Assembly: GCF_006345805.1 (NCBI RefSeq)
Contig: NC_043000.1
Span: 59,210,001 to 59,274,000 of the forward strand
DNA from: Octopus sinensis
Taxonomy: Eukaryota
Direction: 5' to 3'
Length of the DNA stretch: 64,000 bases
Shown: one piece after another, positions 2,923 through 56,713 of the stretch
How the letters are laid out: each line of letters begins with the position of its first letter
Numbering within the stretch: the stretch's first letter is position 1
Made by a program: the position numbers and the translations under genes
Notes under the pieces: model-generated
What the model was told of the DNA's origin: nothing
Database searches by the model: none
Seen by the model: the letters and a program-made list of their open reading frames with translations, nothing else

Positions 2923-4645
2923 TTACATTTAATTCAGGCATGTATTGAGTTCAATGAATAGTAATGAGCCCAATGAATAGTAATAGTAGCTATACTAACT
3001 ATTGTTTTTGTTTAGTTCAACATTTGCCTTGCTCAAGCAGACATGTGAATGTTACTTTAGCGTGCGGTCTACCGCAGTATCCAAAGCCTACACTATGAAA
3101 TGACTTGATCTTGGTTAGGATTAGGGTTAGAGCCAAAATTAGGGTTTGGGTCTAGGGCTTAGGGCGTATGTTTAAAAGCATTTAAAACATCTTGTCTACC
3201 TGTCTATCGGAGACTGCATTGTCCATTGTTTTCTTTCTTTTTTCTGGACGATAAGAAGTAATTTGATGGAAATGTGAATGCCATTTCCGACAGATCGATC
3301 TACCGTCTTCAATATTGATTTCTAACATCGACTCAAGGTCGATGTTAGAAAGATGAAAGCAAAGTTACCCTCGTTGAGATTTGAACTCAGAATGTTAAAA
3401 GACATGACTAAATGTCACAAAGTATTGCATCGGACACTCTGCCGATTTTGCCTATTCACCTTCCTCTAAATTAACTCACGATGACGCCGAATGCATTGTT
3501 TGCAACCTTTGCTGTAACTTTGGCGAGATCTAGTCCTTAGAGGACTTGTGAAACTCTTTGCGTTGTGTTTTTGAGCAAAACACTTCATCTCATGTTGCCT
3601 CAGTCCACTCAGATGTAAAAAATGAGTAATCCTGCGACGGCCCAACATTTCACTCGGGGATGAATATATACTTCACAGAATCCAAAAAACCAGCCTTATG
3701 AGCTTATGGCTCAGAAGAAACTTTTGATTCCGTTTTTTGATACCGTTTTTAGCATCTACATTTAGCATCCCGTTTTTAGCTTTTCTAAGGACTTGAAGAT
3801 TTGTATTAAATCTAACTGCATGCTCATTATAACTAATTTAACAATAAACTTATAGTAAGCTTAATTCAAGTTTTCTAATACTCTTTCAAACCTTATCCTT
3901 TCTAATCTTTCTGTAACTGAAGTTGTTTGTTTTCACTTAACCTTACCATTAATTTCTCTTTCTGTATCTCTTGTAGTATTGTCATCACTTTTTAGAATCT
4001 TGTTTGATTTTTGTCTTTTTGTCAAATAACTTTAAACGACAATTTAAATTTTGCAGAAGTCAAAACTTCCATTGTTAGCGGTTCAGCACCCCACTCAACA
4101 TCTCAAAAGTCCCAGGTTGAAAAACGTAATTTACCAACAGATTACATTTTTTCAATACCTTCATATGTTTAGTTATGGATGAAATGACGCCTTCCCTCAT
4201 TTCTGCCGTAACATCAAAGATATGTGTTGGAGCAAACAAGGTGCTAATGGCGGCATCCTACACAAAGCATCTGTCTCTAGTTCAAGGACAAAGAGTAAGT
4301 GCATCAGACCGTTTCCCATAACCCATCACTACATTCATTTAATGTGGCAGTCAAAGCGACATGCACAAAGACCTCCGAAATCAAAATGTTTATCTCAACC
4401 ACACCTGAACCCCACACATACATTAGCGCCGATTCCGTGAGCTACGTAAGGCGTCGATGTCATCCCAATCTCCAGAAAATTTGGCAATCAAAGAAAGTAG
4501 GCAACACTTTGATCATTGATCAGATTAATCAAAAAGAGAATCGAAAATGTGTTTTTCTTGGAAAAGGTGTCCTCCTGGGCATCCCTTGATACTTCAGTAA
4601 GGCACTCCACCTCACTGAAAGATCAGTTGATTCTTGATTTTTTTG

Positions 4646-4821: not shown

Positions 4822-6335
4822 GGGGAAATATACAGTTCTATATTTAAGAGATGAGGAATTACGTACATTATTTACATTTGACGGATTTGTTGTTAACAAC
4901 AACAAAAACACTGGAAAATACGAAAACTAAAAGAAGCAGCACATATGCTAGGACACAACAACGTTCTAAGCAGACCGAGTGCAGATATGAATAGCATATG
5001 GGAAACGGTATTAAGGAAGGATAGGAAAATATTAGATTTATAAGCCCTAAAATTCACTCATCTCTTAAATATAGAACTGTATCATTTAATCTTAAATATC
5101 GAACTGTATTATCTAATCGGTACGGAGCCGACATTAGACTTCAGTGGAGATATATAGAGAAACTCCATCAAAAACTAGCTCGTCTTTCAAACCATCTAAC
5201 TTTCCTGTGTAGATGTAGAGACTCAAAGCTAATACCCACTGGCTTGAAAATAATGACACCAGTCGATTCATATCAAGCTAGAAGAGTAGCGGAAAGAGCA
5301 GGACATGCCCTCGTCCGTGAGAGGATCCATTACAACCGTTGGAAAAAAAGCATCAACTAAATAACAAAATCAAGAGAGGTTATCATCATAACTTAGGAAA
5401 GTTGTACATGAAAGAATTTGAAATGGCGAAGACACGCCATATTAAGAAGTTTATGAAACTCAAAGGTCAAAGAATGAAGACTGAAGTCCGTCACCCACCT
5501 GTGAAAGCAGTAATTAATGTAAGTAGCCGACATCTAGAGAGTTTTGATGAAGCAGTACTAAAGAAAGGTCTCAACTTCGCCACAACCATCAAACGCATTC
5601 CATACTTGGACATAATAGCCCCTATTGAAGAGACAGTCGTAAAGATACCAAAAGCTCCGGGAGATGAACTAAGGTGGAAAGTGAGACAGGTACTAGAAAA
5701 AGTGAAACCTCTCAAACCAAACATCACTAAGGAAGAAAGGTTCGCTATCAAAGGACTACAGAGTGACAATTCCATCATAATACTTCCAGCAGACAAGGGA
5801 AATGCTACAGTGGTGATTAACAAGTCTGATTACTCTGAAAAATTGGCAAGTCTCATAAGTGATGGTAGCTACTGCAAAGAAAAGAAAGACCCAATTCTGA
5901 AAACAAAGAGGAAGTTGTCACAGATCTTAATCAAGAACAAGGATCACTTAACTCCAATAAAGTACAGACAACTGACTCAACATTACAGTAAACTACCACA
6001 CATGTATGGTCTCCCTAAGATTCACAAGAATTGTATTCCATTAAGACCTATAGTGAGCTGTAGAGGTTCAGCATGTCATCCACTGAGCCGCTTCCATGTG
6101 GATATAATCAGTCCATTAGCAGGAAAGTCAACATCGTTCGTGAAGAATTCCATCCATTTCCCTGAATTGATCAACGATAACAACAATAATAATAATACCT
6201 TAGGAATGAGAACCCAGGCTCAAAATTCCTCCCAAGACACCTGATGAAGGCTGGAGAGTATATCAGCCAAAACGTTGTGTTAACAACAAACAAGATGAGG
6301 ACAAATATCCGTCAAATGTAAATAATGTAAATAAT
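4822..6335 (+). mobile_element. Truncated Penelope-like retroelement (N-terminal and pre-RT part, ORF 5339-6244) with inverted pseudo-LTR pieces
   Basis: ORF motifs LKKGLNFA, PADKGNATVV, YGLPKIHK..PLRPIVS. 4827-4900 is the inverse of sequence at ~5055-5082 and 6305-6330. Hammerhead-like motif at 6241. Confidence 0.85.
6235..6282 (+). ncRNA. Degenerate hammerhead ribozyme motif in Penelope pLTR
   Basis: acac CTGATGA aggctg-gagagtatat-cagcc AAAA cgt tgtgt; the conserved GAAA appears as AAAA. Confidence 0.55.
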
Positions 6336-9265: not shown

Positions 9266-9296
<31 letters not shown>

Positions 9297-9480
9297 CAAT
9301 TAAGGGTTTAGCAACGAATTGCCTTACCGCACACCGAATTTAGAAATAGCAGTCAAAGAGATTATAGCTATTTCTTCTACTAAAAGGGGGATCTCAGTAA
9401 AAACACAGCATTTGAAAGGCAAACACAAACAGGTAAGAGAGAATGAATTAACGGCAATCTATCATACAGTTTTAAGTCAC

Positions 9481-9571
9481 CTACGGACGTACGTTTCGAG
9501 ATCAAGTCTTAGGAAAGCATAAGAATTAGATAATTCTACCTTACCCATACTTCTTCTCTCATCAGCGCAGG
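9481..9571 (-). ncRNA. Type I hammerhead ribozyme
   Basis: Minus strand reads cctgcg CTGATGA gag...ctc GAAA cgtacg TC cgtagg: stem I cctgcg/cgtagg, palindromic stem III. Confidence 0.75.
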
Positions 9572-10164
9572 ATACAAACAATCATGAATGATTGTATATT
9601 GAATTTTGAGATACTAGAAGGCACCAACTCAACTCAGTATCAGAGCGAGCTAGAAGCCACAGCTAGTATCACCAAATTCAAAGTGTGAATGAAAGTTTGT
9701 GTCACCAGTCCCTTCCCACCCGCGTGTAGCCAAGACAAATGCTGTGTTTTCACTGAGATCCCCCTTTTAGTAGAAGAAATAGCTATAATCTCTTTGACTG
9801 CTATTTCTAAATTCGGTGTGCGGTAAGGCAATTCGTTGCTAAACCCTTAATTGCTTAGTATTACTTAAATTTTCCTCGAATGAGGCTTTTACATGCCGAA
9901 GACTACTTGGTGTAATTGATAATTATTCTAAATTAATTAATTTCACCCTTCATTGTTACTGATAACCATATTCATCCCAGTAAATGACCACAGCACTTTG
10001 TCTTGGCTACACGCGGGTGGGAAGGGACTGGTGACACAAACTTTCATTCACACTTTGAATTTGGTGATACTAGCTGTGGCTTCTAGCTCGCTCTGATACT
10101 GAGTTGAGTTGGTGCCTTCTAGTATCTCAAAATTCAATATACAATCATTCATGATTGTTTGTAT

Positions 10165-10256
10165 CCTGCGTTGATGAGAGAAGAAGTATGGGTAAGGTAG
10201 AATTATCTAATTCTTATGCTTTCCTAAGACTTGATCTCGAAACGTACGTCCGTAGG
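10165..10256 (+). ncRNA. Type I hammerhead ribozyme copy (TTGATGA variant)
   Basis: cctgcg TTGATGA gag...ctc GAAA cgtacg TC cgtagg; inverse of 9481-9571. Confidence 0.65.
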
Positions 10257-10544
10257 TGACTTAAAACTGTATGATAGATTGCCGTTAATTCATTCTCTCT
10301 TACCTGTTTGTGTTTGCCTTTCAAATGCTGTGTTTTTACTGAGATCCCCCTTTTAGTAGAAGAAATAGCTATAATCTCTTTGACTGCTATTTCTAAATCC
10401 GGTGTGCGGTAAGGCAATTCGTTGCTAAACCCTTAATTGCTTAGTATTACTTAAATTTTCCTCGCATGAGGCTTTTACATGCCGAAGACTACTTGGTGTA
10501 ATTGATAATTATTCCAAATTAATTAATTTCACCCTTCATTGTTA

Positions 10545-10624
<80 letters not shown>

Positions 10625-10820: not shown

Positions 10821-12040
10821 ACAAACTGACCTTGTCCACAACATTCACTGAGAAAGCTTACGTTACGTACATGAACGCTTTGTCATACCAGACCGAATAA
10901 AAACTATAGAATGGAAGGAGACATGATCACGCAATGTGGTAAATGTAGACGTGACTGGGTTATGTGAGTATGAATATTTGAAAAGATGTATTTGCGTGAG
11001 ATAAAATTTTGCTGTGATAAGCGTGTTTAGACATGAATTTAGCAAGTGCTTGTCGATAATTAAGAGTCTTAGTAGACAGCTCTGCACTTCAAACACTTAG
11101 TACCACGTACAGCATCAAGCTTTGGCACCATTGTAACAAATCAGCGACTGTCATGTTAATGTACACAAATGGGATCGTTACCTTTTGACCGACAGATTTA
11201 AAAAATAATTTTTTGTAACTAAACACTTTCAAACTTCGGACACTGGTAGAATGTGTCATATAAAACATCTTTTACTCTTAGCATTTTTGAGAAAAACTTA
11301 TATTTACGAAGTTATTTCACCTTAAAGTTGTCCTATTTCGGTAATTTCAATCAATCAATGACGTGTATTCAGCTGAATAAAATTACTGTCGTTGTTTGTC
11401 AACAACTATCGGCGGTGTATTTTGCGTTTGTCACTGTTATTTATGACATCGTTCATGCGTTTGTACTGGTTTTAGCTTTAAGGTTTTAGGGTTAGAGTGA
11501 GTGTGATAGGGTTAGGGTTAGGGTTGTCATAAATAATAGTGACAAACGAAATATACACCGCCGGAAGTTCTCGTTGACAAACAACAGCAGTAATTTTATT
11601 CAGCAGAATACACGTCATTGATTGGTTGATATTACCGAAATAGGACAACTTTAACGTGAAATGACTTCGTAAATACGTTTTTCTCAAAAATGCTAAGAGT
11701 AAAAAATGTTTTATATGACATATTCTACCAGTGTCCGAAGTTTGAAAGTGTTCAGTTACAAAAAATTATTTTTTAAATCTGTCGGTCAAAAAGTAAAGAT
11801 CCCACAAATGATGCAAAAAAAAAAAGGGGAAAAAACTGCGTGAATTTGGCTCATTTATCATATTATTTCCACTAATCACAAGGATTATATTGAGTCATAT
11901 ATGGATATAGTTGAGACTGCCATTTTCACTTTCAATAGAACAGATACTTTTCGCACATCCAAGTGTGTTTTTTTCAGTCCTTTCAAGTTCAATAAATAGC
12001 CTGATTGGCTTTAAAAAAACCGCCAAAGCTAGCGGTTTTC
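10820..12040 (-). pseudogene. Possible decayed paramyxo-like nucleoprotein (N) EVE, copy N1, split by the 11171-11803 MITE
   Basis: INMTVADLL...V*SAE...RQALAKF (cf. FNMILGTIL...AVTAPDTA...RRWIKY) and FIRSGMT (cf. YIRNTGLT). Weak matches. Confidence 0.3.
11171..11803. mobile_element. Palindromic MITE with ~280-bp inverted arms and a (TTAGGG)n-like core
   Basis: gggatc...gatccc termini; 6-bp TSD acaaat (11165-70 and 11804-09). Confidence 0.9.
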
Positions 12041-12499: not shown

Positions 12500-12916
12500 T
12501 TCTCTCTCACGCACACACATACATAAATGTATACAAACGTACCTACAAAAACACGTGTGCGTATGAGACTAACTAGAAATACATAGAGCTGAACACGCTG
12601 CGCAAAAAGTAAATAGATAAAAAAAATGTACGGAAATTAACGAAGTGTGCGGGTTCAAACGAAACAATGCGGCGAATGAAACTTTAAATGAAAACATTGA
12701 AATGAATATATATTAAATTACTATAAATGAAAATAAAGGCAATAGAGAGTGAGAGAGATTTGCAAATGAAAACTGAAATTTCGCCTTCAACTAATGAATG
12801 CAACGAATGCAGTGAATGCAAAGAATATGTAAATTAGTGAAAAACTTGTAGTTCAAATATTCAATAAAGTTCAGAAATCGAAATTGCATTTCTTGAAACA
12901 TGAATTTATAAAATAA

Positions 12917-13130
12917 TTTCCAGACAGTCAAGCCTTTAATAATTGCTTTCTTTTAGTAACTGTTACATACCTAATTAATAAGGAGCTTTTTCTATTATAA
13001 TATATTGATAGATATAGATAGACATGAATTAAAAAAAAAAATTCCAGACGGTCAAGCCTTTAGTAATTGCTTTTTTTTAGTAACTGTTACATATCTAATT
13101 AATAAGCAGCTTTCTCCATTATAATATAGA
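12917..13130. repeat. Tandem duplication, two ~120-bp units
   Basis: ttccagacrgtcaagccttta...attataatata occurs twice. Confidence 0.8.
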
Positions 13131-13548
13131 GAGACGCAGTGAATTGGTCTTTATGTCTAACTGCAACGCCATGAAAAGAATTCTTTCATACACACTTCCC
13201 ATTCTTTCTCTCTCGCAAAGATATGTTTAGAGACAACAAAGAGCATTCTTTTCAGACCATACATTTTAATATCTTCCCTTTCTTTGAGTTTAAATATACT
13301 AGGATATAAATGTGTAGCGAATTGTTTCCTAGATTCTTAGCCAAGATTCGAAACTTAGCATAGATTTTTTACCGAGTTCCTTTCTATTGTTCTCGGCATT
13401 TGCTTTAAGAAACTTATTAGAGTCACCGGTTAACTTGCAATCATTTCAAGTCATATATGGAACGGAAAATCTTTTGTTTAGCCTGATCCAATTTAGTTAT
13501 AAAAAAAAAAAATAGAGAACCCAATTTCGGTTCTACCCCTTTCACTTG

Positions 13549-13714
13549 GCCCCTGGTCAAAAGGACCACTCAACAAGGCCTCAAGGTACCAACAACTCGG
13601 GCAGTCTCCTGGGACACCATGTGTTAGGGGCCCTGATAAAGACATGGAAATTTCCACGACTGTCAGCTTGTACACGCCGAAATTCAGCTTGCCCGCAACT
13701 CTAGGGCCAGCCCT
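13549..13714. mobile_element. hAT-like MITE (same family as 20917-21081)
   Basis: Shared ggaaatttccacga..gtcagcttgtacacgccgaa core; ends gccagccctg. Confidence 0.75.
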
Positions 13715-14545
13715 GTTTGTCACCGCGGGACTATACAACTTTCACCTTCTTGTCTAAATTCTTTTATTCTTTCTCTCTCTTTCTTCCATCCATCTTCTAG
13801 TAGTCATTCATTGATGAGCTTGATGAACTTAACTACCTACAAAATGGGTAACAGAATTGCAAATAGTCATTGTTCAACAACTCGAAGAATTTGTATCGAT
13901 AACAATAAAGGTCAAAACTCCTAAATATTCTTCTTACTCTCATATATTTTACGCTTGGTGACTTCCGACTTTAGAATTACATCCTTCTCAACATACCAAC
14001 TATTGCATTACCGTGAAGATCAACTCAGTCTTCTACAATGATTGGAGATGAGAATTAAGGGTTCTGCGACAAAGGTGCATTTTAATAAACTCTATTAAAA
14101 ATTCATTTGATAAAAAAGAAAAACTATATTTCCAGTTTTTAATTATATATTCTTTTAATATGAATAAATTCTTCCTCTAGAACAACTTTTGTTTAATTTA
14201 ATTTCTTATTTGAATTAGGTATGGGCTCCGCGACTTTAGGAAAATCGTATGAATGTTCCCCGACAGATTTAGCTTGAGCGGCATTGCCGTAGAGCGTAAT
14301 TCGGGAGATTTGGTTGCTATTTCTTGCAGGCTCAATGACGACGTAGAAGCACCTTGTTAACTCCATGGTGTTCATTTTTTTCCTTACTAGAAACAAATCA
14401 CGATATTTTTGGAAGACGAGTGGAAATATGATGAGATATTTATATATTTCTCTGGATTATTGAAGTCATTTACGAAAGGATATACTATGAAGCAGGAATC
14501 TAGACCGGTCATCAATACTTGAGTAGTCTACCTTATTGCGTTACC

Positions 14546-15544
14546 AGGACCGGCTCAAGGTACCGGCAACTCAAGCAGTCATCCGGGGAGCGAAATTTTT
14601 TCCCCACGAGAGTTCCGGACCCCAGTAATGAACTCATTTGCATACAGCCAATCAGAGCTCGCCTTCACCTTGTTGTCAAGTTAACAAACACAATCTATAT
14701 TCAAGACGAAGAACGGTGTTGAAAGTCGATCGACCGCCAGGTTATGCCTGATTTTAGAAGGAGACAAGTAATTAGATAGATTTGCATTTATACCTATTAT
14801 CGGATTTTGTTAGGACCCCATATGGTAAAGATGTGGATAGGAAAAATGTGGGTAGCTGGTGATGTGCTAGCAACCTTCTCCCCTTACTGTTTTACAAAGT
14901 AAACAACAATGCAAATAGCTATGCAGAGGCAGCCATGATTGAAAGAAGAACAAGAACAACAAGCATCATTAAAAGAGAAAAGAAGTATTGTCATTCCTTA
15001 ACCAAGTGACCTTATCTCATCGCCTGACTGGGTGAAAATGATCAAACTTTAAACCTCTATAATTTTTTAAAAACATTTTTCTGGTAAAAATGAAATAATT
15101 CCAGCAATTGAGTTTGGGCAAGTGTATTATTGTGACAACGTCGGAGTAACCAGTGAACATCAAAAGATCAACAATAAGAAGGAAGAAATATTATTTACAT
15201 AAATTTATTCGTTTGCTTGACAGGTAGTTAGAGACAGTAGTACTTGTAGCGATTGCGAAATTTTTTTTCGATAGTGACAAAAAGTTTGCTGTTTGCCATT
15301 AGAGCGGAAAAGAATAAGGAATGCACGGTGCTGACTAGAAAGGAAGAAAGGATAAAGGTAGCTCTGCCATGATTGGCTGTATGCAAATGAGTTCATTCCT
15401 GGGGCTCGGAACTCTCGTGGGGAAAAAAATTTTGCATCCGGGACGCCATATGCTAGGGGGCGCCAAGGAGGGCGTAACAAAGACAAGGAAATTTCCACAA
15501 CCATCAGCTTGCCCGGGGCGCCAGCAACCCGATGGCCGGCCCTG
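14546..15544. mobile_element. ~1-kb non-autonomous hAT-like element
   Basis: caggaccggc...gccggccctg TIRs; inverted subterminal arms 14595-14658 and 15361-15430; degenerate 8-bp TSD (tgcgttac/aacgttcc). Confidence 0.7.
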
Positions 15545-16410
15545 AACGTTCCTCACTGCTATTCGTAATATTAGGAAGGCGTACTTGCAGAAGCAGTAAT
15601 CTATTGGACTAACGCAATAATTATTGTGTTTCTTAGAGTTCAAATCATTACAAGACCTTTTTAATTTTCCTTTTTAATCACCCAGGGTCGATAAAATAGG
15701 TGCTAAACATTCAGTCGGAGTATTCTAGAGATGACGGTGTCGGGCTGGCTGTAAGGATACTTGTCAGTCGGTATTAAGTTTAGCCGCGTGTTGTCCCATA
15801 ATAAATCAATTACGAACATTGCTGAAATAACATTTCAGACTATCAAAGTAAATTACAATACATCTCTTATTATAAACGGCAGATTTTATCTGCCTCCCTT
15901 TGTAACTTATAGAAATCTACAATATAGGATTTCTTCAATTACAATTTACCTAGCATTTTTAAGAGTAGAATGCATCGGGTCATGCCAGGTCCAGTTTTTA
16001 AAATTTAAACTCCAATTAAGCAAAATTTACAGAAAACTCACATTCTGGTGTGTATGTCAAATGCTTTTCTTAATGTGGTTTACACCACACGCACACGCAC
16101 ACACACAGTGTGCAACGAATAAAATGAAAGTAAATAGCGACAGAGTGATTTGAGGAAGACTAAACTGAAAGTATTTAAACCACTACTCAAAAAATAAAAA
16201 AAACACAGCAAACAGAAACAAATAAATACATAACGATTTACTCCTCACACAATTTCTTCAATTAGAGTTTACCTAAGATTTTTCAAAGTACTCCATTCGG
16301 TCATGCCATAATATATTTCTTTCAATTTCACCCCCAATTAAGACAAAATTCGAGAAAACTCAATATTTTAACATTTCACTCCGAAAGCATTGATGTACAT
16401 GTGTGCGTGC

Positions 16411-16451
<41 letters not shown>

Positions 16452-16699
16452 ATGGGTTGTGCGACACAGAAAGTGTGGTGTGTAAGTGAAGTGCTTTTGT
16501 TAGTGTGTGTAAAGAGACAGACAGAGTGAAAGACAGAAATAACTGAACTTTTTTTATTCACTTTTTGTAGTGAGTGACTGAGAGAGAAAAGAGAGAGAGA
16601 CGTTATGTATGTATATATGTATGCATGGCTTCAGTGACACACACACACAAAAACACATACCTACGTACACCTAAAGCACGCACACACACACACACAAGC

Positions 16700-17539
16700 G
16701 GAGCGCGAACTTCAAAATTTTGGTAGTATTAATTTGCGAGCGTACTTCTAAGCGCGCGTAATTGAAAGTTTTCACTATGATATCATCACGTGCGAAAAAA
16801 TTCGAAGGGTTTTGAACAATTGAGATACACATGTCACGCCTGTATTGAAACCATTGCTAAGCTGCCGTAATTGCTTAATTAAGACTTTGTTTAAATTGAA
16901 AGGGGCAAATATGTGACGAGGTTGAAAAAAAATACCCCAGAAAAAAAATGTACTGCTGGTATTTATATAATTCACTACTATTTTGCTACAATGTCATGAA
17001 AAAGAAAAAAAATTAGGTATGTAAATCGAATTCGCCACCCCCTTTTCCCCGTTCGCGTTTGTGTAAAAAAAATTATTATTTAAGTTTTAAAAATTATTTA
17101 CTTTGTTCAAAAAATATTAATATTAATTAATTTTCAAGAATTATTTAATTTTATTCTGTAAAATAGTAATTAATTCATTTATCTGTAAATCCGCGAGGTT
17201 GTTACTCAGGCACCTAGAATGGTAACCTTCAACTAACACTATCTCCTCCGAGACCCTGCGGCGCAAGTTGACCAAAATTGAGAGTATGGTAGAAGAAGGG
17301 TTGCTCTTCCTTCCGTAGAACATAAAATTCAAATCGGACCATGTTAACACCAAAAATTTTTTACATCAAAAAGATGCTTTTTTCTATGAAAATCCCTATT
17401 TTTTACGATTTTTTCACTGCTGTGTCGCCACTTTTCGGTGTATTTCGACCAGAAAAATGTTCACAAAATTTTTACTTTTCAAAATTACAATTCCAGCGGG
17501 TCGAAACAAACCCGAGCATCGCCGGGCGATACTGCTAGT
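16700..17539 (+). mobile_element. Non-autonomous Helitron-like element (3' end clear, 5' end approximate)
   Basis: Terminal hairpin cccgagcatcgccggg followed by ctgCTAGt. Confidence 0.6.
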
Positions 17540-17836
17540 ATATTAATATTTATACACCACTGTTTACCAGTTGCATCGCGTAGTGTACAAGAACCGAACT
17601 AGTTGCAATTAAATTACTAACAATAGAGATCAGCTTCGTGTAAGAGGCGAGCATAATGCTTATCTGTCCTAGTTCGAGAATTCCTTTTAAATCGGGGATT
17701 AACTTCAGCTAAAGAAAACTTATCGAAGTAAGAAGTTGTTGCTTGTGCTTTTGAAATGTGCCGCTCTCTGATCTGTTTATGCATGTTAAGCTTATATAAC
17801 AATAAAAACGCGGGAACGTCCTCGAATATTCTATAA

Positions 17837-18201
17837 CTAGCACTATGACCTGGCAACGCCGGGTCATAGTGCTAGTGCATGCATATACAGCTGCATGCGT
17901 GCGCACATACACGCGAGTACTGTCCAAATCTCCGACCAATCACATACAGCTAGCTGGCATTCAATTGGCGTATCAAGTTTCGGGCATTTTGATTGGGTTT
18001 TGGATAGAAAATTCACAAAAAAGTCACTTCTATTGATTTTTTTAATGGCCTTGCGGGGTGACTGGGGGAATGTAAAGATGTGCACGACCACCTTTGGACA
18101 GTTTTGAATGACCATAGAAAGTGCGAGCCCTCTAATGGAAAAAACTGTGGATTTGTATAAAGGACACGCACACAGACATTTTGCCGTTTATATATATAGA
18201 G
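17837..18201 (-). mobile_element. Non-autonomous Helitron nested in the Gypsy 3' LTR
   Basis: Hairpin ctagcactatgacc-tggcaacgcc-gggtcatagtgctag with CTAG end; TC(TA)n start; it splits the LTR homology. Confidence 0.65.
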
Positions 18202-20916
18202 ATATAGGGTGATATTTCTATAATCTGATTAACCAGTTATCAGGGTACTTCGTCCGACTAAAGTGTGACTGGGCCCAGCCATCAAAGCTGAGAGATTCAA
18301 TTATAGGCCTCACTACATGAGTCTCCCACCAGTGAGCTTGGGATAACGTGAACGAAAATAACTCAACTGTAGCAAAAAACTAGTTACAATATAACTACAT
18401 GGCAAAGAATACAAGAGAAATAAATGAAATTGAAAATGCAAACAACCGAAGTGAAAGAAATACAATATTGTTCATATCCAAAGTCTATGTGTACCAAAAT
18501 ATGTTGAAAACAAAACACATGTAATAAGAGAGAATAAATGGGGGAAAGTATTAAAAGCAATTTTCATTGATACACAAATTTTTTTTTTATAGTAAAAATT
18601 AATTGTAATAGATTAATGTAATTTCAGTTGAACAATGTAGCTTTCTACCACTTCTGGTCACTCTGTATTAGGTATGAAAGTATTATGAGAGGTATTGTTT
18701 TCATATTCTGGTTGTGTAAATGTTGAGGGTGTTAAAGAAGACTGATTTTGAGAAGCTACTGATTCAACAAAAACTTTCTTAAACCTGTTTATATTGTTTC
18801 TTGTTTTTCTTGCATGTCGAGGATCATAAATTTATGTTCTGCTTTTAAAATCTGATATGGACCAGAATAAGTTGTGCACAAAAGATGTGAACGGTATCGT
18901 TACGTACGAAAGCGAGAGATTAAGTATATATATTTGACAGAACAAAGTTTTAATCAACTGCGGTCTTGTAACCATCGGAGGTAACTCCGCCATGTAGTTT
19001 CGCAATCGTTGAACATAACTAGTAGAATCATGCAGCCGGATAGTTATTGCAACTACCATATGACCAGGTAGTGTGATTTCAGGGCCCTACAATAACTCTA
19101 TTGGAGAATAACCCAGGTCTTCTTTAGCTGTACGCAACAGGCAGGAATTCTAACCGTCTATCCGAATAGATATATGCACGTAAAGTTGCCTCAAGCTGGC
19201 AATGAAAACGTTCAATATTTCCATAAGAAGCAGGATGATAGACTGTCGCATAAATTATTTCCGTTACTTACAGATTAGTTAATTCAGTGATGGGCCTAGA
19301 TTCAAATTGTCTACCTCTGTCGGTTGTAATCGTAGAAGCAGAGCCAAAACGTGAAATCCATTCAGCCGTTAAGGGTTTTTGCAACAGTCAGAGATGAAAT
19401 ACCTTTAATAAGTATAGCTTCAGACCATCTTGAAAAACGGCCGTTGCAAGTTAACAAATACATCTTGTCCTGTACCGGAGTGTAAAGTACCAACAATATA
19501 TATATGTGAATAGGCTTAAAACGTGTGTCAGGAGTAGGAAATGTCCCTTGAGGTGTCTTAATATGGTGGTGAACTGTAGCTTTTTTGACAAGATATAGTG
19601 TCGTATAGTTACGAATACTCTTCTGCATGTTTGGCCATACAAAACGGATCGAAATTAATTTCCCTGCCTCTGAAATACCAAGGTCAGATAAATTTCGAAG
19701 TACTGAAAACGCTGTTCGCCTATACTTTTCTGATACAGCCTAGAAGATCCAATTGAAACATCGCACCAAATTTGTGTATCATTAGAATGTAGTGGTAATA
19801 CACAAAAGTTTAAAGAAGATGATCCTGAATTTCTGAGTTGCAATAATTCTTCCTTGATTGTTTGTTGATCTGTTGCAATTTCTTCTAAATTAATGGTATC
19901 ACCAGAGTGCAAAATGCCGATATGAACACGAGATAATGTATCTGCTGCAAAATTTTTAGAACCATTGGTATAACGTGTATCCATAATGAATTATGAAATA
20001 TAATCAATGTATCTAAGTCCTGTGGGGAATATTTATCCGTTTTGGATTGTAACGCATAAGGTAATGGTTTACGATCAGTATAAATAATGAAGGTTCTTCG
20101 TTCCAGGAAATGATGAAAACATTGCGTGAAGAAAGAAAGAGGTTGCCAAGAATTCTAGACAAACTGCTGCAGCACCCCAGCGATTTCTACGTTCGATGCA
20201 TTTATCACAAGGGATAAAGATGTGTCTGGTATCGAGTGGGTAATTAAGGTAACTTTAGTTAATTTCTCTTTTATGTAATTAAAAGGCAGTAATTCTGTCA
20301 GAGTTAAGGAGATAGTCTCATTTTCCGTTTACGATTACGTAGTAATTTCGTTAATGGAAATATGGTCTCCGTACAGAGCGAAATGAACAGCCTATAGAAG
20401 TTTAGAAGGCTGAGAAACTATCGCAGCTTCCTGAACGATGTAGGCACATGAGTTTTCACAATCGCACTTAGTTTTTCGTTCAGCGGTCGGAATTCATCAT
20501 TATTGATGATATATCCTAAAAATGTTATGGATGAGACAACAAAATAGCATTGCTGGGGTTAATCACCTCACCAAAATGTGATAACCTACTAAAAAGATGT
20601 TCCAAATGTTGTTCATGCTACTCTTCCGTAGCAAAGTCTAAACCACGAGTAACTTGTCGCAAAATCTTTGAAATGAATTCGCAACGTCCCTAAGACCAAA
20701 AAGCACATTAAGAAATTGGAAGAGCCCCAAAGGGGTAGTTATAGCAGTTTCAGAAACATCACCAGGTTCTATGGGAATCTGATTTTAGCATGAACTAAGT
20801 CAATTTTTATTAAAAAACGGTACAGCCATGTAAAAAAGAAGAGAAATCATAGACGTGTAGATCGGATACTTATTCGGAATAGTTAAGACATTTAATTTTC
20901 TATAGTCTCCACAAGG

Positions 20917-21081
20917 CAGGGCCGGCCTTAGGGTTGCTGACGCCCCGGCAAGCTGAACTTCGGCGTGTACAAGCTGACTATCGTGGAAATTTCCTTGTCT
21001 TTGTCACGCCGTCCTTAGCGCTTCCTAGCGCATGGCACCCCTGGCGACTTCCCGAGTTGCCGGTACCTTGAGCCGGCCCTG
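20917..21081. mobile_element. hAT MITE inserted in Gypsy RT
   Basis: TIR cagggccggc/gccggccctg; perfect 8-bp TSD ccacaagg. Confidence 0.92.
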
Positions 21082-22440
21082 CCACAAGGAGGCCAACTCC
21101 GTAAGTTTTTTGAACTTGAACAATGAAGAAACCCAGCCACTACAAGAAGGTCGAATTATTCCAAATACAAACATGTGGCTGAAATTCATCCTTTGTAATT
21201 TTCAGTTTGTCTGCAGCTAGTAGTCTCAGTTGTACAGAAACAGGAGGACCTTTTGTGACAATGTGATGCATGACTGAGTTAGATAAAAGAGACTAAAAAC
21301 AAAAGAGAATTGGCATTGGTTGATTTCACGCTCATACCTTGTATCGACAAGTCAATCTCAGAGTCATTTAGTTTCTTGTTTTTCAAGTTAACAAGATGAG
21401 CATGATGATACAAAAACTCCAATGATGGAGTAAGGAAGATGTGCTATCTAAAAGTCCACAGATGTGCTATCTAAAAGTCCACATGAATTCCCTTCACAAA
21501 TTAAAATCTAATGCCATGGATTTTTCATCATATGTGGGCATCGGAGAATGAATAACTGTCTGTAGTATAACCACTGTCGGTTTCCGTGATTCACATAAAA
21601 CGTGACTGACCAAGTACTACACACTACACCAGTATGGAAACGATATTTTGAATAAAATACATATAAAATACGCAACTTACTGAAGACTGGGAATTATAGT
21701 GGCATTTAATCCCTGGCTTCGCTGTTTCTCGTAGTTGGTTGGTTGAATAAAGCTAACATGACTGAATACACTTATACGCTTGTGTATCAAACTCATGTTG
21801 TGGTACCTACATAATGCGGTAGCTCTTTTGCAGGGATAAAGCGAACGACTTCGAGAGATCCTGTGAATTAAGAATTTGATAGAGCAGAATAACGAGGCAA
21901 CTGTAGCCGTTCCAGTTTATCGGTAAGAACCCGAAAATTTTTTCCTTCACCTTGCTAATTCAGAAGAAATGGAAGATATAAAACCAGTCGAATAAGTTTC
22001 TGCATTGGTAGAATTCGAAAAAGAAATATCCAAAATCCGTCAGCTAATTTGGCTGAGCTATAGAACTTTGTTATCTTACTGGCCCTAAAACAGCTTGCAC
22101 ATTAGGGAGCAAACGAGACCGAAAGAGTTGTTTTAACATTGACTCTTCTAATAGATTATTTTCCAGTAACTCAACGTCTGTCTTAAGAGTCGTGAAAGTT
22201 TCTTACCCTCAAAAACTTCGCTTTGGAGAAGCTGATGGAAACATCTGTGTTTACACGTAGAAGTATATCGTAAAATGTCCATATAACAAGAAAAACGCGG
22301 GAACTTCGTGGAATATTCTATGTTATGGGGCGTTATTTCTATAATCTGATTGGTCAGTAATCAGGGCACGTGACCTAATTCAAATGTGGATTGGGCCCAA
22401 CTATCAGATATGTAAGGTTTCGACTGTAGGCCTCGCTACA

Positions 22441-24850
22441 ATGGCTTGTAACGGAAAATTTTCGGAACAACTACTTCACAGCTCGATTAATTTTCGCTTT
22501 TTTGTCTGTGACAAAAATATTCAAATTTCAACAAAAATATTGCTAAATAACATACACTTTGGAATCTTCCGGAACGTATTTATAATAAATACGCAAATTA
22601 TCAATTTGAATCACTGTTCATCATGCATATGAGGATTCTTATCGGTTGACAGATATCAGCACAGGTCACCGAACAGTTTGTTCGTTGACATTATGAAGAT
22701 CATCAGCTCTTGTTAGATTCATTTGTCCGATTGCTCTTGACTGATGAGACACAACATGTCGAAACATCGGTGCCCTAGAATTGTTTGCACTAATGAATCA
22801 AGTATGTTATGAACACATATTCGTCGTAATGGAGAAGCTGTTCTGTGACGAACACAAAAGCTATTAGCATATTCATGTTCGAATCTGTCAGAATGTATCA
22901 AGAATAAATATGGAAGTCATTGTGTAATTAAATGCATTTAGCCCTAAATGAAAAAAAGTATGTGGACTTCTAACTTTTTAAGGAATCACGATTTTTTCAA
23001 AGTATGAATAAAAGCCTCCTAACTGTGATCATCATGACGTGTTTTTAAAGGAATTTATCCGCCGGATAGTTCTGATTGAAAAAATATGATCACCTCCAAT
23101 ATTTTTAGTCTCAGATTAGCCTTGATTGACAACATTCGCAGAATAGATGCCAATAGAAAGCCTACAACTGTGGAAATAATTGAAAATTCTTTTTAGATTT
23201 TGCTTTTCGTCGAAAACATGAGGTTGATTGGAGGACTCCACGGTTGATTGGAGGGTTCCACGGTTGATTGGCGTGCAGTCCCAAAGAAATGTTTCCCTGT
23301 TCCTGTTCTTGATAGAAAAAAAGCCACGTCAGCATTATTAATAGAGAAAAGCATTCTACTAGGTATTATTAGAGTGATGTTAAACGGAAGGATTGCTCCG
23401 TCTAGATGGGATAGTCACGATTAGAATGCTTTTGATCTGATTTTATCTCAAATTGGGCTGAAAACCAATCAATAACATTTGTGTTAAAATTTCATCCAAT
23501 AAACTAAAAATATGTTTACATTTCAACAATTAAAACAGGAATGCTATATTATAGCTGGGTTGGGTGTTCGCTAGAAATTTCTTTTAAAGTATAAAAAGAA
23601 AATAGAGACTCAGTTCGTTTCTCAGTAATAGTGAATTACCGTCACTTCTAATTTTTCTTTGGAAACAAAAAGGTACGAAAGTCATAAACCCTCTTCTTGC
23701 AGAGATCATTATATTTCGTCAAATGAAAATAGTATTGCGCTTGAATGGCAAAGAAGGACAAAACTGTAGAGTGTCGGACTAAATTCATTACAGTATATAA
23801 TTCTATTGCTTTCTATCTACCTTTCATTCTTACGAACTCAGTAAAATACTTGTGATTTACTGGTTATTCTGGGGGTAAATTTATTGTTCTAATTCTCTCT
23901 CATATGAAACTTGGCAATGTACCAATATACGAAATTACCACTGCTTCTAGGGCAAGATAAACTGCTTCAGCCATTTCTATATTCCTGCTTGCAGTTTCAT
24001 CCTATCGAAGATGATAATATAAATATTTGTAACATACTGGTTTCAAATTTTGGCACTAAGCCAGCATTTTCGGGGGAGGGACTAAGTCGATTACATCGAT
24101 ACAAGTGCTTATTTTATCGACCTGAAAGGATCAAAGGCAAAGTCGACCTCGGCGGAACTTGAACTCAAAACATAAAGACGGGCGAAATGCCGCTAAGCAT
24201 TTTGCCCGGCGTATTAATGCCAACACTCCACCATAAGTATTTGTAATATATAATAATAAATTAAGGTGGCTAGCAGGCAGAATCCTTACTGCCCGGACAA
24301 AATGATTAGCAGCATTTTTTCCGAATTAACGTTCTGAGTCCAAATTCTGCTGAGTTCGACTTTGCCTTTCATTCTTTTGAGATCAATAGAATAAATACTA
24401 GCTGAACACTGGGATCGATGTAATCGACCTCCACCTCCTCTAAAATGCTGGCCTTCAGCCAAAATATAAACCAATACATTCAATCGATTTAATTGTGTAT
24501 CCAATTAAATATAAACAAATACAGCATTTGTTGATTTCTCTATACACACAATTATTATTTTTCATATAAATAGTCTATAAATGTTGCCCCTTTCTTGTTG
24601 CTTAGCATTATAAGCGTCTGCATATCGTACAGTGGGCTCTTGATTATCATATATTTATCTAAAAATATACAAAATATATAATAGAAATCAATAATAATAA
24701 TTCAGTTTTTGGGATTAATAGATATACCGGTATTATATTTCAGATAATACAAAAAAAAAACAAAAAAACCTAATGAGTATATCTGAAGGTAAACTCGTGG
24801 TATCTATTTGCACATCACGAAATTATACTCCTCTCGTGTCTATAGTCCTT
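22441..24850 (+). pseudogene. Decayed paramyxo-like L EVE, copy L2 part 2: capping (PRNTase) and methyltransferase regions
   Basis: IFGTTTSQ (22458, GxxT); YRLTDIST (22640, cf. HRLRDRST); HIHVRIC (22868, cf. HLHVETDCC); SVGLNS (23770, cf. RIGLNS); FTGYSGG (23856, cf. GEGSG/GDGSGG). Interrupted by SINEs. Confidence 0.6.
24040..24460. mobile_element. Two SINE family B copies in opposite orientation
   Basis: gaaaggatsaaaggcaaagtcgacctcggcggaa core and its reverse complement. Confidence 0.8.
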
Positions 24851-25157
24851 TAGGACATTTTTCATTTCTCCTTTGTGCTACACACTCTTATCTGTCTTGC
24901 TGGCCCACAACTTTTTTTGTTGTTGTATATGTATTATCAGGCTCCCGTGGCTTTTATGGGTCTTTCCACGAGAAACCTTTCGAAGCGCCCCCGCCCCTAT
25001 TAGGAGTTTAAATTGTTACTTATTTTTCGTTGTCATCCTGCTTTTGTACACGAACTTTTTCAAACGGACAAAACCCTTTGTAACTTTCGTCCTGTTTTGT
25101 CCCTTTATGTTTTAATTGATTTTTGTTAGCCCTTGTGGCCAATAAACGAACGAATTA

Positions 25158-26630: not shown

Positions 26631-26923
26631 GCGAAACTAGTAATAGAATAAATAACTAAATGTTTGCTATAGATATAAATTCTGCTTTGAGTACTGAATA
26701 CTATTTCTTTTGTTTGTTAAAGTAACAATATCCATACACTCGCACACGTACGCACACATATAGGGAATGATATAGTCAATTGAGCTGATTCAAGCGGCGA
26801 GCAGGCACTATAGTTAGCAGGTTTGGTAAAAGGTTTAGCAGCATTTCTTCTGGTTTCACGTTCTGAGTTCATATTCCGCCGTGGTCGACTTTGCCGGTAG
26901 CCTTTCGGGGGCGATGAAATAAA

Positions 26924-27442
26924 TACCGCAAATCTTCGAGTATAATCCGCATTTTCCTCCCCACAAATTTAAAGGTCAAAATCCCTAGTGCGTACTATAT
27001 ACGAGGTTAAAAATGAAAAAATATTTTCTAAGCAATGTCCGAGTCTCTATTTGCTGTCCGGCAATGTTTATTCAGACGCATTTTGTGATGTCAGGCGCGA
27101 AAACACCTTAAGCTAAGCCGAAAGCAATGAAGAATCATCTATAACTTGTAGTAAGCAACATTTATTAAAATAAAAGTATTCAGAACACAGAATGATATGT
27201 AGCAGAAACAATTTGCAAACATATTTACATTCCCATATAACAATTAAGAACATCACCATTATTGTATTACGTATGCGCGGAAGTATTTGTTCGACTAGGT
27301 GCTGCTAGCTTAATTACGCACGACTCAAGTTAGAGAGGGGATGCGTATTATACACAAGGTTTAGGTTTTTCAGAGGTACAACCCCCTAAAAATCCCCTGC
27401 GTATTATACTCAAGGGCGAACTATACTCGAGGATTTACGGTA
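26924..27442. mobile_element. pogo/Tigger-like MITE inserted into a SINE
   Basis: TIR taccgcaaatcttcgagtata / tatactcgaggatttacggta; SINE family B continues on both sides (26795-26923 and 27443-27520). Confidence 0.75.
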
Positions 27443-27528: not shown

Positions 27529-28504
27529 GAATCAGTTCACTTTCATCGGCAGATCGAGAAATTAACTTTTTCTAACTAAACTTTCAAACTTCGGACACTG
27601 GTAGAATGTGTTATATAAAACATCGTTGCTGAGAAAAGTTTCTATTTACGAACTTATTTCGTGTTAAAGTTGTCGTATTTCGGTAATTTTAACCAATCAA
27701 TGACGCGCATTCAGCTGAATAAAATTACTGCTGTTTGTCAACGACAACTATCGGCGGTGTATATTTCGTTTGTCATTGTTATTTATGACATATTTCATCT
27801 CAATTACGTTTGTATGAATAAACGAGTGTATCGGAAGCACGTTTACTTCATGAAACCACCATAATCGTTCGTGCATTTCTACTGCTTTTTGGTTTTTTCC
27901 CCCCTGTTTTTCAGCTACTATTTTCGGAAAGACTTCCCCCAACCCATTTTCTCGCAAATTATTGTTTTTTTAATTTTTTTTTCCCCAAAAACACAGCTTT
28001 TAGACACGGAGATTCCGGAAAATTGCCAAAAATCAGAATTTTGAAATTTTTTTGGCTCCCTTATCCCCCCCCCCTCCAATTTCTTCATTTTTCACTTTTT
28101 CCGTAACCCTAACCCTATAACCCCATCCCTAACCCTAACCCTAAAATCCAAACCCTAACCCTAACCCTAAAACCATATCCCTAACCCTAAAACCCTAAAG
28201 CTAAAACCAGTATAAACGCACGAACGATATCATAAATAACAGTGACAAACGAAATATAAACCGCCGATTGTTGTTGTTGAAAAACAACAGCAGTAATTTT
28301 ATTCAGCTGAATTCACGTCATTGATTAGTTGAAATTACCGAAATACAACTTTAACACGAAATAACTTCGTAAATAGAAACTTTTCTCAACAACGCTAAGA
28401 GTAAAGGATGTTTTATATGACACATTCTACCAGTGTCCGAAGTTTGAAAGTGTTTAGTTACAAAAAATTAATTTCTCGATCTGCCGATGAAACTGAAAAG
28501 ATCT
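27529..28504. mobile_element. Palindromic MITE with (CCCTAA)n core, relative of 11171-11803
   Basis: Inverted arms tttcaaacttcggacactggtagaatgtg...; taaccc repeats at 28105-28200. Confidence 0.85.
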
Positions 28505-29665: not shown

Positions 29666-30447
29666 AGGTACAAGGCCTAAAACTGTTGGGGAGGTTGGGC
29701 AGTCGATTAGATCAAGAACTCAACTGGTACTTAATTTATCGATCCCGAAAGGATGAAAGGCAAAGTCGACCTCGGCGGAATTTGAACTCAGAACGTAGCG
29801 GCAGACAAAATACCTATTTCTTTACTACCCACAAGGGGCTAAACATAGAGGGGACAAACAAGGACAGACAAACGGATTAAGTCGATTATATCGACCCAGT
29901 GCGTAACTGGTACTTATTTAATCGACCCCGAAAGGATGAAAGGCAAAGTCGACCTCGGCGGAATTTGAACTCAGAACGTAACGGCAAACGAAATACGGCT
30001 ACGCATTTCGCCCGGCGTGCTAACGTTTCTTATTTTTTTATTGGCCACAAAGGGATAAACATAGAGGGGACAAACAAGGACAGACAAACAGATTAAGTCG
30101 ATTACGTCGGCCTCCAGTGCGTAACTGGTACTTAGTTTATCGACTCCGAAAGGATGAAAGGTAAAGTCGACCCGCGGGAATTTGAACTCAGAACGTAACG
30201 GCAGACGAAATACCCATTTCTTTACTGCCCACAGGAGGCTAAACACAGAGGGGACAAATAAGGAGAGACAAATGGATTAAATCGATTACATCGGCCCCCA
30301 GTGCGTAACTGGTACTTAATTTATCGACCTCGAAAGGGTGAAAGGCAAAGTCGACCTCGGCGGAATTTGAACTCAGAACGTAGCGGCAGACGAAATACTG
30401 CTAAGCATTTCGCCCGGCGTGCTAACGTTTCTGCCAGCTCGCCGCCC
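29666..30447 (-). mobile_element. SINE family B with four tandem ~180-bp core units
   Basis: Repeated aactggtactta..ttatcgac..cgaaaggatgaaaggcaaagtcgacc...gaactcagaacgt; head ggcggcgagctggcag at 30446. Confidence 0.85.
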
Positions 30448-31539
30448 TATATATTTGACATTATATCGTCAAATATTGTCTTACCGAATACTGCTTGACA
30501 ATACTAAAGAAGCTGTAGGTTGAAAGTTTTTGCTGCAATAGTTTAATCATCACTATGGTTGGATCTGGTCTTCCAGCTTGTCAATTGATACCGTAAGCTG
30601 ATCTATTATTTAATTTGCTTAAACCCCGCTCAATAACTCTAGAACAAAGTGGAGACCAGCGGTAATATCGCCTTTAAATTTCACTGTGGATATTTTGGCG
30701 AGATTGGAATCATACATTAAAGGGTTATTGGCAACAATAGGAACTCCGTATCAGTTTTTAATTATTATTGTATAGTTCAAGCGTCGTCATACTTCTGAAA
30801 TCGCAGTACGTAAAGGACTTGAAGATGTGCATAAAATTGAATGGAAGTTATCTTTTTTTTACATATAATAATAAATCCAAACACGTTTAGTTCTTGCGTA
30901 CGTTTGCATTACCGAATACCATATCGTTGAAAAAAAAAAAGAACTGATAAATTCCTTAAAATCATAGCAGGTGTTATGTTTCGTAAATTTCCGTACCCTA
31001 ATAGAGGACAAAGACTTTTAACAATATCAATGTTATTGACTGAGATACACAAGATGAAACTGAAGATATATTAAAGCTGATGAAGGACTTGTAGTAACAC
31101 CTAGTGGTCAAGCAGGAAAGCAAAACGAAAAAGGGATCTAATGAACATTCTCGAATATTCTAGAAGCTTTCAATTAACTTCCCGATGTCGCGGAAGTCAG
31201 GGACTTCTGGTCCATCCCTTATATTTATATATATATATACATTCCAGATTATCTTTGCGATTTCGGCTGGTTATACTCGAGATTGCTCCAATCTGGCCAG
31301 CCCCAAGGAAAAACTAAGCTAAGAGCATTAGATTCCTTGGAAGAAAGCAGCGAATGTATTCGAAAACAAGGACGGGAAAAAACGGAGAATGTTATACAAA
31401 TGCAAATAATAGGACATAACAACACGTGTCTTTCGACTAAGGACGAATATATATATATATATGTATATATATATGTATATATATATATATGTATATATGT
31501 ATATAATATATATATATTATATATATCATATATATATGC

Positions 31540-34284: not shown

Positions 34285-34425
34285 GGTTTCAAATTTTGGC
34301 ACAAGGCCAGCAATTTCGGGGGAGGTGACAAGTCGATTACATCGATCCCAGCACTCAACTGGTACTTATTTTATCGACCCCGATAGGATGAAAAGCAAAG
34401 TCGGCCTTGGCGGAATTAGATAAGA
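34285..34425 (-). mobile_element. SINE family B fragment
   Basis: ttttggcacaaggccagcaatttc...aaagtcggccttggcggaa. Confidence 0.75.

Positions 34426-50787: not shown

Positions 50788-56713
<5,926 letters not shown>

Follow-up and report, generated by a model that had tools for sequence, protein, structure and literature searches.

An 11,771-bp locus of the Octopus sinensis genome combines a genuine nest of transposons with intervening DNA that has a slightly better than even chance of being a decayed, partial mononegavirus L fossil. The locus lies within the window, which here means the whole 64,000-nucleotide stretch of DNA that was analysed. The transposon inserts sum to 7,950 of the 11,771 bp, leaving 3,821 bp between them. 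An initial annotation of this DNA had described a single L gene stretched over 11.5 kb, a description that is plausible by eye but finds no statistical or database support. If the viral reading is right, the DNA between the inserts would be an old, partial and non-functional copy of a rhabdovirus-like L gene running approximately from motif F to the methyltransferase (MTase). A host retroelement may have copied viral RNA into DNA that integrated a single time, and the copy may then have decayed neutrally through stops, frameshifts and large internal losses. Such a fossil would encode no protein now, and an intact or translatable L is ruled out by stops in every frame.

Five transposon insertions split the target DNA and two further ones sit within the Gypsy element. 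The nest contains two hAT-type inserts, a Helitron, a minus-strand Gypsy with a Helitron and a MITE of its own, and an inverted repeat pair:

13561 to 13715, strand not applicable: hAT-type MITE, 73% match to 20917-21072, 8-bp flanks agreeing at 5/8
14545 to 15544, strand not applicable: 1-kb non-autonomous hAT-type element, TIRs 9/11, 8-bp flanks 5/8
15863 to 17538, plus strand: non-autonomous Helitron with microsatellites, A|TC start, 3' hairpin, CTAG|T end
17784 to 18317, minus strand: Gypsy 3' LTR, split by a Helitron and aligning in two blocks to 22281-22440, left boundary good to a few bases
17837 to 18202, minus strand: short Helitron splitting the Gypsy LTR, A|TC...CTAG|T
18318 to 22273, minus strand: Gypsy internal region with decayed pol, Pfam domains in order, coding z 6.1 and 2.7
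20917 to 21081, strand not applicable: hAT-type MITE in the Gypsy, TIR 10/11, exact 8/8 TSD
22274 to 22440, minus strand: Gypsy 5' LTR, from the LTR-LTR alignment
24035 to 24476, strand not applicable: inverted pair of interspersed repeats, SINE-like, self-inverted match 68%

The hAT-type elements have short TIRs and an 8-bp TSD that agrees at 8/8 positions in the youngest copy and at 5/8 in the other two; the MITE at 13561-13715 is classed as hAT-type by its 8-bp TSD and CAG-type ends. The ends of the MITE at 20917-21081 are common to the MITE at 13561-13715 and the 1-kb element, which also holds an internal 62-bp inverted repeat (14593-14654 and 15370-15431). Both Helitrons have the TC start, 3' hairpin, CTAG end and A/T flanks and show no TSD, and their 5' ends are similar to each other. 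Where SINEs had been named, an inverted pair of interspersed repeats does occur at 24035-24476, with further copies in the window at 26825-26927, 29701-30475 and 34285-34417; these repeats are SINE-like. The nested anatomy described in the initial annotation (hAT-type elements, a Helitron, and a Gypsy carrying a Helitron and a MITE) is thus confirmed by ends, TIRs, flanks and domains. The inserts share class domain order, ends and target duplications with known Ty3/Gypsy elements, hAT MITEs and non-autonomous Helitrons. Insertion proceeded from the target DNA to the Gypsy and then to the Gypsy-borne Helitron and MITE. By itself such nesting is what repeat-rich genomes commonly show and nothing unusual. 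The octopus genome is also rich in decayed elements.

The internal region of the Gypsy yields, in order, Pfam matches to RT_RNaseH (E 5.4e-7), Integrase_H2C2 (E 1.4e-3) and rve (E 0.088), so that paired LTRs and an RNase H preceding the integrase mark it as Ty3/Gypsy. A purine-rich tract lies just before the 3' LTR, and no TGG-type PBS was found in the element. The flanks, ATGCA and ATGGC, give no clean TSD of the 4-6 bp sought. As had been claimed, the LTR pair is strongly diverged, with 124 of 154 aligned sites identical and a distance of 0.23-0.30. Octopus DNA accumulates roughly 0.0036 substitutions per site in a million years, and the insertion is loosely dated to some 30-40 million years ago, a precise age being rejected; the 95% range of the distance is 0.21-0.42. 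Within that loose range the pair dates the enclosing DNA, whatever its nature, and it would date an EVE if the viral reading is right.

The putative L fossil consists of six pieces, all read on the plus strand:

13130 to 13560, plus strand: piece 1, putative L, motif F look-alike at about 13500-13545, left end uncertain
13724 to 14544, plus strand: piece 2, putative L, RdRp look-alikes for motif A at 13960, B at about 14220 and C at about 14300
15553 to 15862, plus strand: piece 3, putative L, single-copy in the window, no motif or Pfam support
17539 to 17783, plus strand: piece 4, putative L, single-copy, top capping motif A anchor at 17640
22441 to 24035, plus strand: piece 5, putative L, capping look-alikes at 22458, 22628, 22697, 22825-22848, 22965 and 23027, GxGxG at 23747 or 23859
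24477 to 24900, plus strand: piece 6, putative L, no motif, Pfam or NCBIfam support, right end uncertain

The look-alikes of RdRp motifs F, A, B and C stand in L order and rank 1, 1, 28 and 47 among the 3821 plus-strand anchors. The top anchors for F and A, at 13508 and 13960, are 97 codons apart versus 75 in VSV; the minus strand of the pieces yields higher-scoring matches to both motifs than the plus strand. Within piece 5, the six capping-domain look-alikes (anchor ranks 13-312 of 3821) are at most 6 codons off the VSV spacing, with intervals of 55, 23, 43, 47 and 21 codons versus 52, 26, 43, 45 and 27 by hand count. Its two candidate GxGxG sites rank 64 and 30. By eye and without gaps, the stretch from 22452 agrees with rabies virus motif A at 5 of 10 residues (printed alignment, PMC4705655 Fig. 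S1) and the stretch from 23027 with VSV 1293-1306 at 5 of 14 (printed alignment); a hand estimate puts the number of segments equal to the best ones expected by chance at about four.

All of these look-alikes are degenerate and were chosen post hoc. The claimed colinearity of RdRp, capping and MTase motifs survives as look-alikes in L order on the plus strand, but no canonical motif is intact. Catalytic residues (GDN, HR and the zinc cysteines) are not kept in the pieces: motif C has GDL in place of GDN, and the candidate sites for HR and GxGxG are degenerate. The top capping motif A anchor in piece 4 (17640) is at odds with the placement of that motif at 22458 in piece 5. GTTT at 22464, earlier read as the GxxT of capping motif B, is no worse a fit to capping motif A in the printed alignment. 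That two incompatible capping registers both appear to fit is a warning of over-fitting. Two further statements, that L homology resumes directly after the Gypsy LTR and that it reads through the insert at 14546-15544, are by-eye readings that were not confirmed; frames within the inserts aside, neither junction is spanned by a plus-strand ORF of at least 100 aa.

Even if the L reading is right, the pieces are not a whole gene. They amount to about 1,270 codons, and to fit L spacing about 110 codons would have to be missing from motif C to the capping domain and about 140 from the zinc site to GxGxG; the N-terminal part and the C-terminus of L are not seen in them. Self-comparison finds no second copy of the pieces elsewhere in the window, and their base composition is like that of its remainder. 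An A-rich run lies near 24750, and no rhabdovirus-type stop signal resembling TATG(A)7 occurs on the plus strand between 23013 and 33163.

The motif order was evaluated by a blind, frameshift-tolerant chain scored against shuffles and natural tiles. The blind chain is at shuffle level, with scores as high in 49/150, 50/120 and 10-12/60 shuffles and in 25 of the 32 natural tiles. If the start position is taken as given, the complete chain tends towards a positive result, with 3 and 11 of 60 shuffles scoring as high. Among its parts, the RdRp F-A-B-C chain is equalled by 51/120 and 22-30/60 shuffles, and the MTase chain (GxGxG, K-D-K-E) by 20/120. The capping chain with a free start is equalled by only 2-3 of 60 shuffles, yet by 7-9 of 32 natural tiles, and with the start granted by 34 of 60 shuffles. 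Synthetic L fossils reach a median of +10 at 25% decay, versus -2.3 for the pieces, and medians of 3.5 and 0.8 at 35-45% decay; these fossils lack a separate null and contain slightly more G than the pieces, so that they set only approximate limits on the power. There is no plus-strand coding signal in the pieces (hidden-frame z 1.2, versus 2.6 on the minus strand and 6.1 in the Gypsy control), an absence that heavy decay would likewise give. Both strands show a depletion of stop triplets (z -3.0 on the plus strand, z -1.9 on the minus strand), as do controls.

Library searches of the pieces, which used single frames only, returned no L. Across sets of 18, 42 and 114 readings Pfam gave no Mononegavirales family, and it gave no family at all on either strand; NCBIfam gave no Mononegavirales match in 9 readings, and six PDB searches gave no L chain at E up to 10. 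A search of 1.84 billion proteins found two matches, both to repetitive cadherin-like proteins. Word-index protein searches returned L in 0 of 64 candidates (of at most 2,000 aa, so that full-length L fell largely outside) and in 0 of 752. Against phages, blastn of piece 5 gave one chance match (E 0.5), and there were no Rfam matches and no tRNAs. The negative L searches are weak, because the same searches largely miss the known, younger Gypsy: 3 of 27 readings of it match a retroelement domain, its RVT_1 is missed by Pfam, and its integrase ORF matched 0 of 365 candidates.

Several explanations could account for these observations. The pieces may be ordinary non-coding host DNA with piled-up transposons, the L motifs being chance look-alikes drawn from three frames; this explanation carries considerable weight, if well short of an even chance. 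It fits the uniformly negative library searches, a blind chain no better than shuffles, the silent plus strand, a base composition as in the rest of the window and the two incompatible capping registers. It does not readily account for the agreement of some ten look-alikes with L in order and spacing or for the top F and A anchors at expected places, and the negative searches mostly miss the known Gypsy too. A decayed L fossil keeps the slight preference stated above. A narrower proposal is that an MTase-bearing L of a rhabdovirus-like, cytoplasmic lineage integrated once into a cephalopod genome, before the Gypsy insertion of about 30-40 million years ago and probably long before it; our confidence in this falls somewhat short of even.

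It is improbable that the RdRp part and the capping/MTase part derive from two separate viral integrations, joined either by recombination between the LTRs of a pair of Gypsy copies or by insertion at neighbouring sites. The lack of a clean Gypsy TSD, the high LTR distance (0.23-0.30) and the absence of about 110 codons between motif C and the capping domain would agree with such a history, as would a second coding-like stretch at window positions 1-1240. Judged by eye, the region of motifs D-E looks like the bornavirus rows and the capping part like dimarhabdovirus rows, but such hints of lineage are too faint to count. Against this history, the Gypsy is undivided, with an LTR on each side and its domains ordered, and the two parts follow each other without overlap in the correct order and on the correct strand. 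Least probable, and very unlikely, is that the pieces are remains of another old coding sequence, either a transposon or a host pseudogene. Decayed elements abound in the genome and stops are mildly depleted; against this, no Pfam family is found on either strand of the pieces and they have no similar copy in the window.

Comparable fossils are known from bats, where transposons break up L copies; several of these lie in fragments among which transposons have been mapped (PMC4865735, Supp. Fig. 3). The likeness lies in an L-derived, transposon-fragmented genomic fossil. The bat copies were detected by tBLASTn at E < 1e-20 and one retains a 1,718-codon ORF (PMC4865735), whereas the octopus pieces are undetectable by search. 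Rhabdovirus-derived integrations in Aedes mosquitoes (PMC6379468) are likewise non-retroviral RNA-virus sequences in a repeat-rich invertebrate genome; those are recognisable by clear similarity in sequence, while the octopus candidate is far more decayed and has a cephalopod host. Mononegavirales L in VSV numbering has the order RdRp F-A-B-C, capping A-E, zinc site and GxGxG (PMC6636387), which the look-alikes mirror; the octopus pieces differ from it in their missing catalytic residues and two large spacing deficits. The MTase part, if real, sets the octopus fossil apart from Bornaviridae and Nyamiviridae, both of which have no MTase, and would rule out a bornavirus or nyamivirus origin.

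In the literature searched, no report of an endogenous mononegavirus-type L in cephalopods was found, and the fossil, if real, is possibly the first reported in a cephalopod. Mononegaviruses would then have entered the germ line of the octopus lineage tens of millions of years ago, and the nested LTR pair would provide an internal clock for a virus lineage without a known living relative. It would also imply that such fossils can sit beneath the reach of standard single-frame searches. If the stretch at 1-1240 is an L-like fossil as well, the locus would be a cluster of ancient viral remains.

The window is AT-rich (G+C about 36%), with abundant microsatellites and interspersed repeats, and its SINE-like repeats are presumably of the kind typical of Octopus genomes. 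The initial annotation proposed that a nest of transposons stretches one viral L gene, encoding the polymerase, capping and methyltransferase (MTase) protein, over about 11.5 kb of the plus strand. Self-comparison and junction checks bore out the insertion anatomy: inserts make up 7,950 of 11,771 bp, and the remaining 3,821 bp are split into six pieces (13130-13560, 13724-14544, 15553-15862, 17539-17783, 22441-24035 and 24477-24900). The inserts are as follows.

13561-13715: MITE of 155 bp, ends common to the 14545-15544 and 20917-21081 elements
14545-15544: 1-kb element, ends common to both MITEs
15863-17538, plus strand: non-autonomous Helitron (TC start, 3' hairpin, CTAG end) between A and T
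about 17784-22440, minus strand: Gypsy element with RNase H, integrase zinc finger and integrase core in Gypsy order
17837-18202, minus strand: non-autonomous Helitron (TC start, 3' hairpin, CTAG end) between A and T
20917-21081: MITE of 165 bp, same ends as the 13561-13715 and 14545-15544 elements
24035-24476: inverted repeat pair, from self-comparison

The three elements with common ends have 8-bp flanks identical at 5/8, 5/8 and 8/8 positions in the order listed (chance of at least five, 0.04), which fits hAT elements differing in age. The Gypsy domains were recognized in Pfam with E values of 5.4e-7 (RNase H), 1.4e-3 (zinc finger) and 0.088 (core). No piece has a second copy within the 64-kb window. 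The transposon nest around the pieces is real and ordinary. Elsewhere, a 124-bp tandem duplication at 12898-13128 adjoins the first piece on its left, a 20-bp unit is repeated 2.5 times inside the fifth (23222-23271), and long-TIR MITE-like elements that are 80-87% alike lie at 11170-11804, 27541-27798 and 28151-28503.

The Gypsy LTRs had been put forward as a clock. The pair is indeed strongly diverged, with 124 of 154 sites identical in local alignment (K2P 0.23) and a distance of 0.30 in global alignment (164 sites, bootstrap range 0.21-0.42). At a rate that we take to be about 0.0036 substitutions per site per million years in octopus, the insertion would be roughly 30-40 million years old. 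Since junction inspection found no clean TSD in the flanks, the LTR pair may be recombinant. The date holds for the DNA that Gypsy entered regardless of its identity.

The case for L rests on motif look-alikes in L order. Those of motifs F and A, at 13508 and 13960, each rank top of 3,821 plus-strand anchors, with a higher maximum on the minus strand in both cases; they lie 97 codons apart versus 75 in VSV. Next come look-alikes of motif B, 86 codons further on (VSV 74; anchor rank 28), and of motif C, after another 28 codons (VSV 35; anchor rank 47). Compared with the capping-domain alignment in Fig. S1 of PMC4705655, six capping look-alikes (22464, 22628, 22697, 22825, 22965 and 23027) are spaced by 55, 23, 43, 47 and 21 codons versus 52, 26, 43, 45 and 27 in VSV by hand count. 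Against that alignment, the stretch from 22452 agrees with the motif A row of rabies at 5 of 10 residues, and that from 23027 is identical to VSV 1293-1306 at 5 of 14 positions, ungapped. Directly upstream of 22452, at the LTR edge, is a Trp codon in another frame. These look-alikes are no proof, because their placements were selected after looking, catalytic residues of L are absent, about four segments of equal score are expected by chance (a hand estimate using BLOSUM62 statistics), and the register of the initial annotation, with GxxT at 22464 and capping motif A at 17640, also fits. Both registers require more than 100 codons to be missing in each of two places.

A frameshift-tolerant chain of key L residues (from PMC6636387, PMC4234470 and PMC13179165) was scored on the pieces and compared with shuffles. 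Placed blindly, the chain stays at shuffle level: a chain of 42 residues was matched or beaten by 49 of 150 shuffles and one of 71 residues by 50 of 120, and under revised numbering the score was reached in 10-12 of 60 shuffles and also in 25 of 32 natural tiles. With the originally proposed start position granted, shuffles scored as high in 3/60 and 11/60 cases for the full chain, 6/60 and 8/60 for the RdRp part, and 34/60 for the capping motifs. Synthetic L fossils gave median scores of 19, 10, 6, 3.5 and 0.8 at 15, 25, 30, 35 and 45% decay, and a canonical L decayed by up to a quarter is therefore disfavoured; a heavily decayed or divergent L may be the source. A hidden-frame coding test gave z of 1.2 (plus) and 2.6 (minus) for the pieces, whereas the interior of the Gypsy scored 6.1 and 2.7.

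Database searches with the pieces were negative. With stops read as X, no Mononegavirales family in Pfam matched 18 long readings, 42 medium-length readings or 114 overlapping 60-residue windows (nine windows had weak unrelated matches). Nine readings had no relevant NCBIfam match, six PDB searches at E up to 10 returned no L chain, and word-index searches gave 0/64 and 0/752 candidates. One frame of 13300-14544 matched two of 1.84 billion proteins, both repetitive and cadherin-like. These negatives are weak because the same searches largely miss the younger Gypsy: a retroelement domain was matched in only 3 of its 27 readings, RT went undetected, and searching with its integrase ORF gave 0 of 365 candidates.

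The motif order speaks for the single L gene; the negative searches, absent catalytic residues and blind chain speak against it. An L fossil from one integration is unproven, and we consider the question nearly balanced, tilting slightly in its favour. A host retroelement would have copied viral RNA into DNA, which would then have integrated and decayed free of selection, as established for non-retroviral EVEs; the putative 3' end showed no gene-end signal. Later insertions split the DNA of the pieces, Gypsy arriving before its own Helitron and MITE. Such a fossil would resemble those described in bats (PMC4865735), also L-derived and fragmented by transposons; rhabdovirus-like integrations are described in Aedes (PMC6379468). 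Titles and abstract openings, in a coverage excluding most subscription papers and bioRxiv supplements, held no report of a cephalopod mononegavirus fossil, and the available text of a marine virome preprint leaves Mononegavirales unmentioned.

Further features lie elsewhere in the window. Single-copy 1-1240 (plus, z 3.4), without a Pfam, NCBIfam or convincing PDB match, has an MTase-like motif order by eye and may be a second L fragment. Single-copy 3750-4600 (minus, z 3.0) has a Cys- and Trp-rich translation and no Pfam match, and a stop-free frame of 175 aa at 63327-63854 (minus) has no convincing Pfam family. The 307-aa ORF at 5025-6244 (plus, z 6.3), also without a Pfam match, resembles, by eye, the N-terminal region of Penelope-like elements. 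Broken helicase-like ORFs at 59658-61294 (plus; helicase family E 5e-4) are probably an autonomous Helitron remnant, the Helitron label being assigned by eye. A perfect 447-bp inverted repeat at 9293-10550, with near-identical direct and inverted copies, either arose by very recent rearrangement or is an artefact of the assembly. The segment 51130-51469 recurs at 55634-55974, and the 472-aa ORF at 51870-53288 (minus) is, judged by its RVT_1 (E 3.5e-6) and weak GIY-YIG (E 0.17) matches, a young Penelope-like element.
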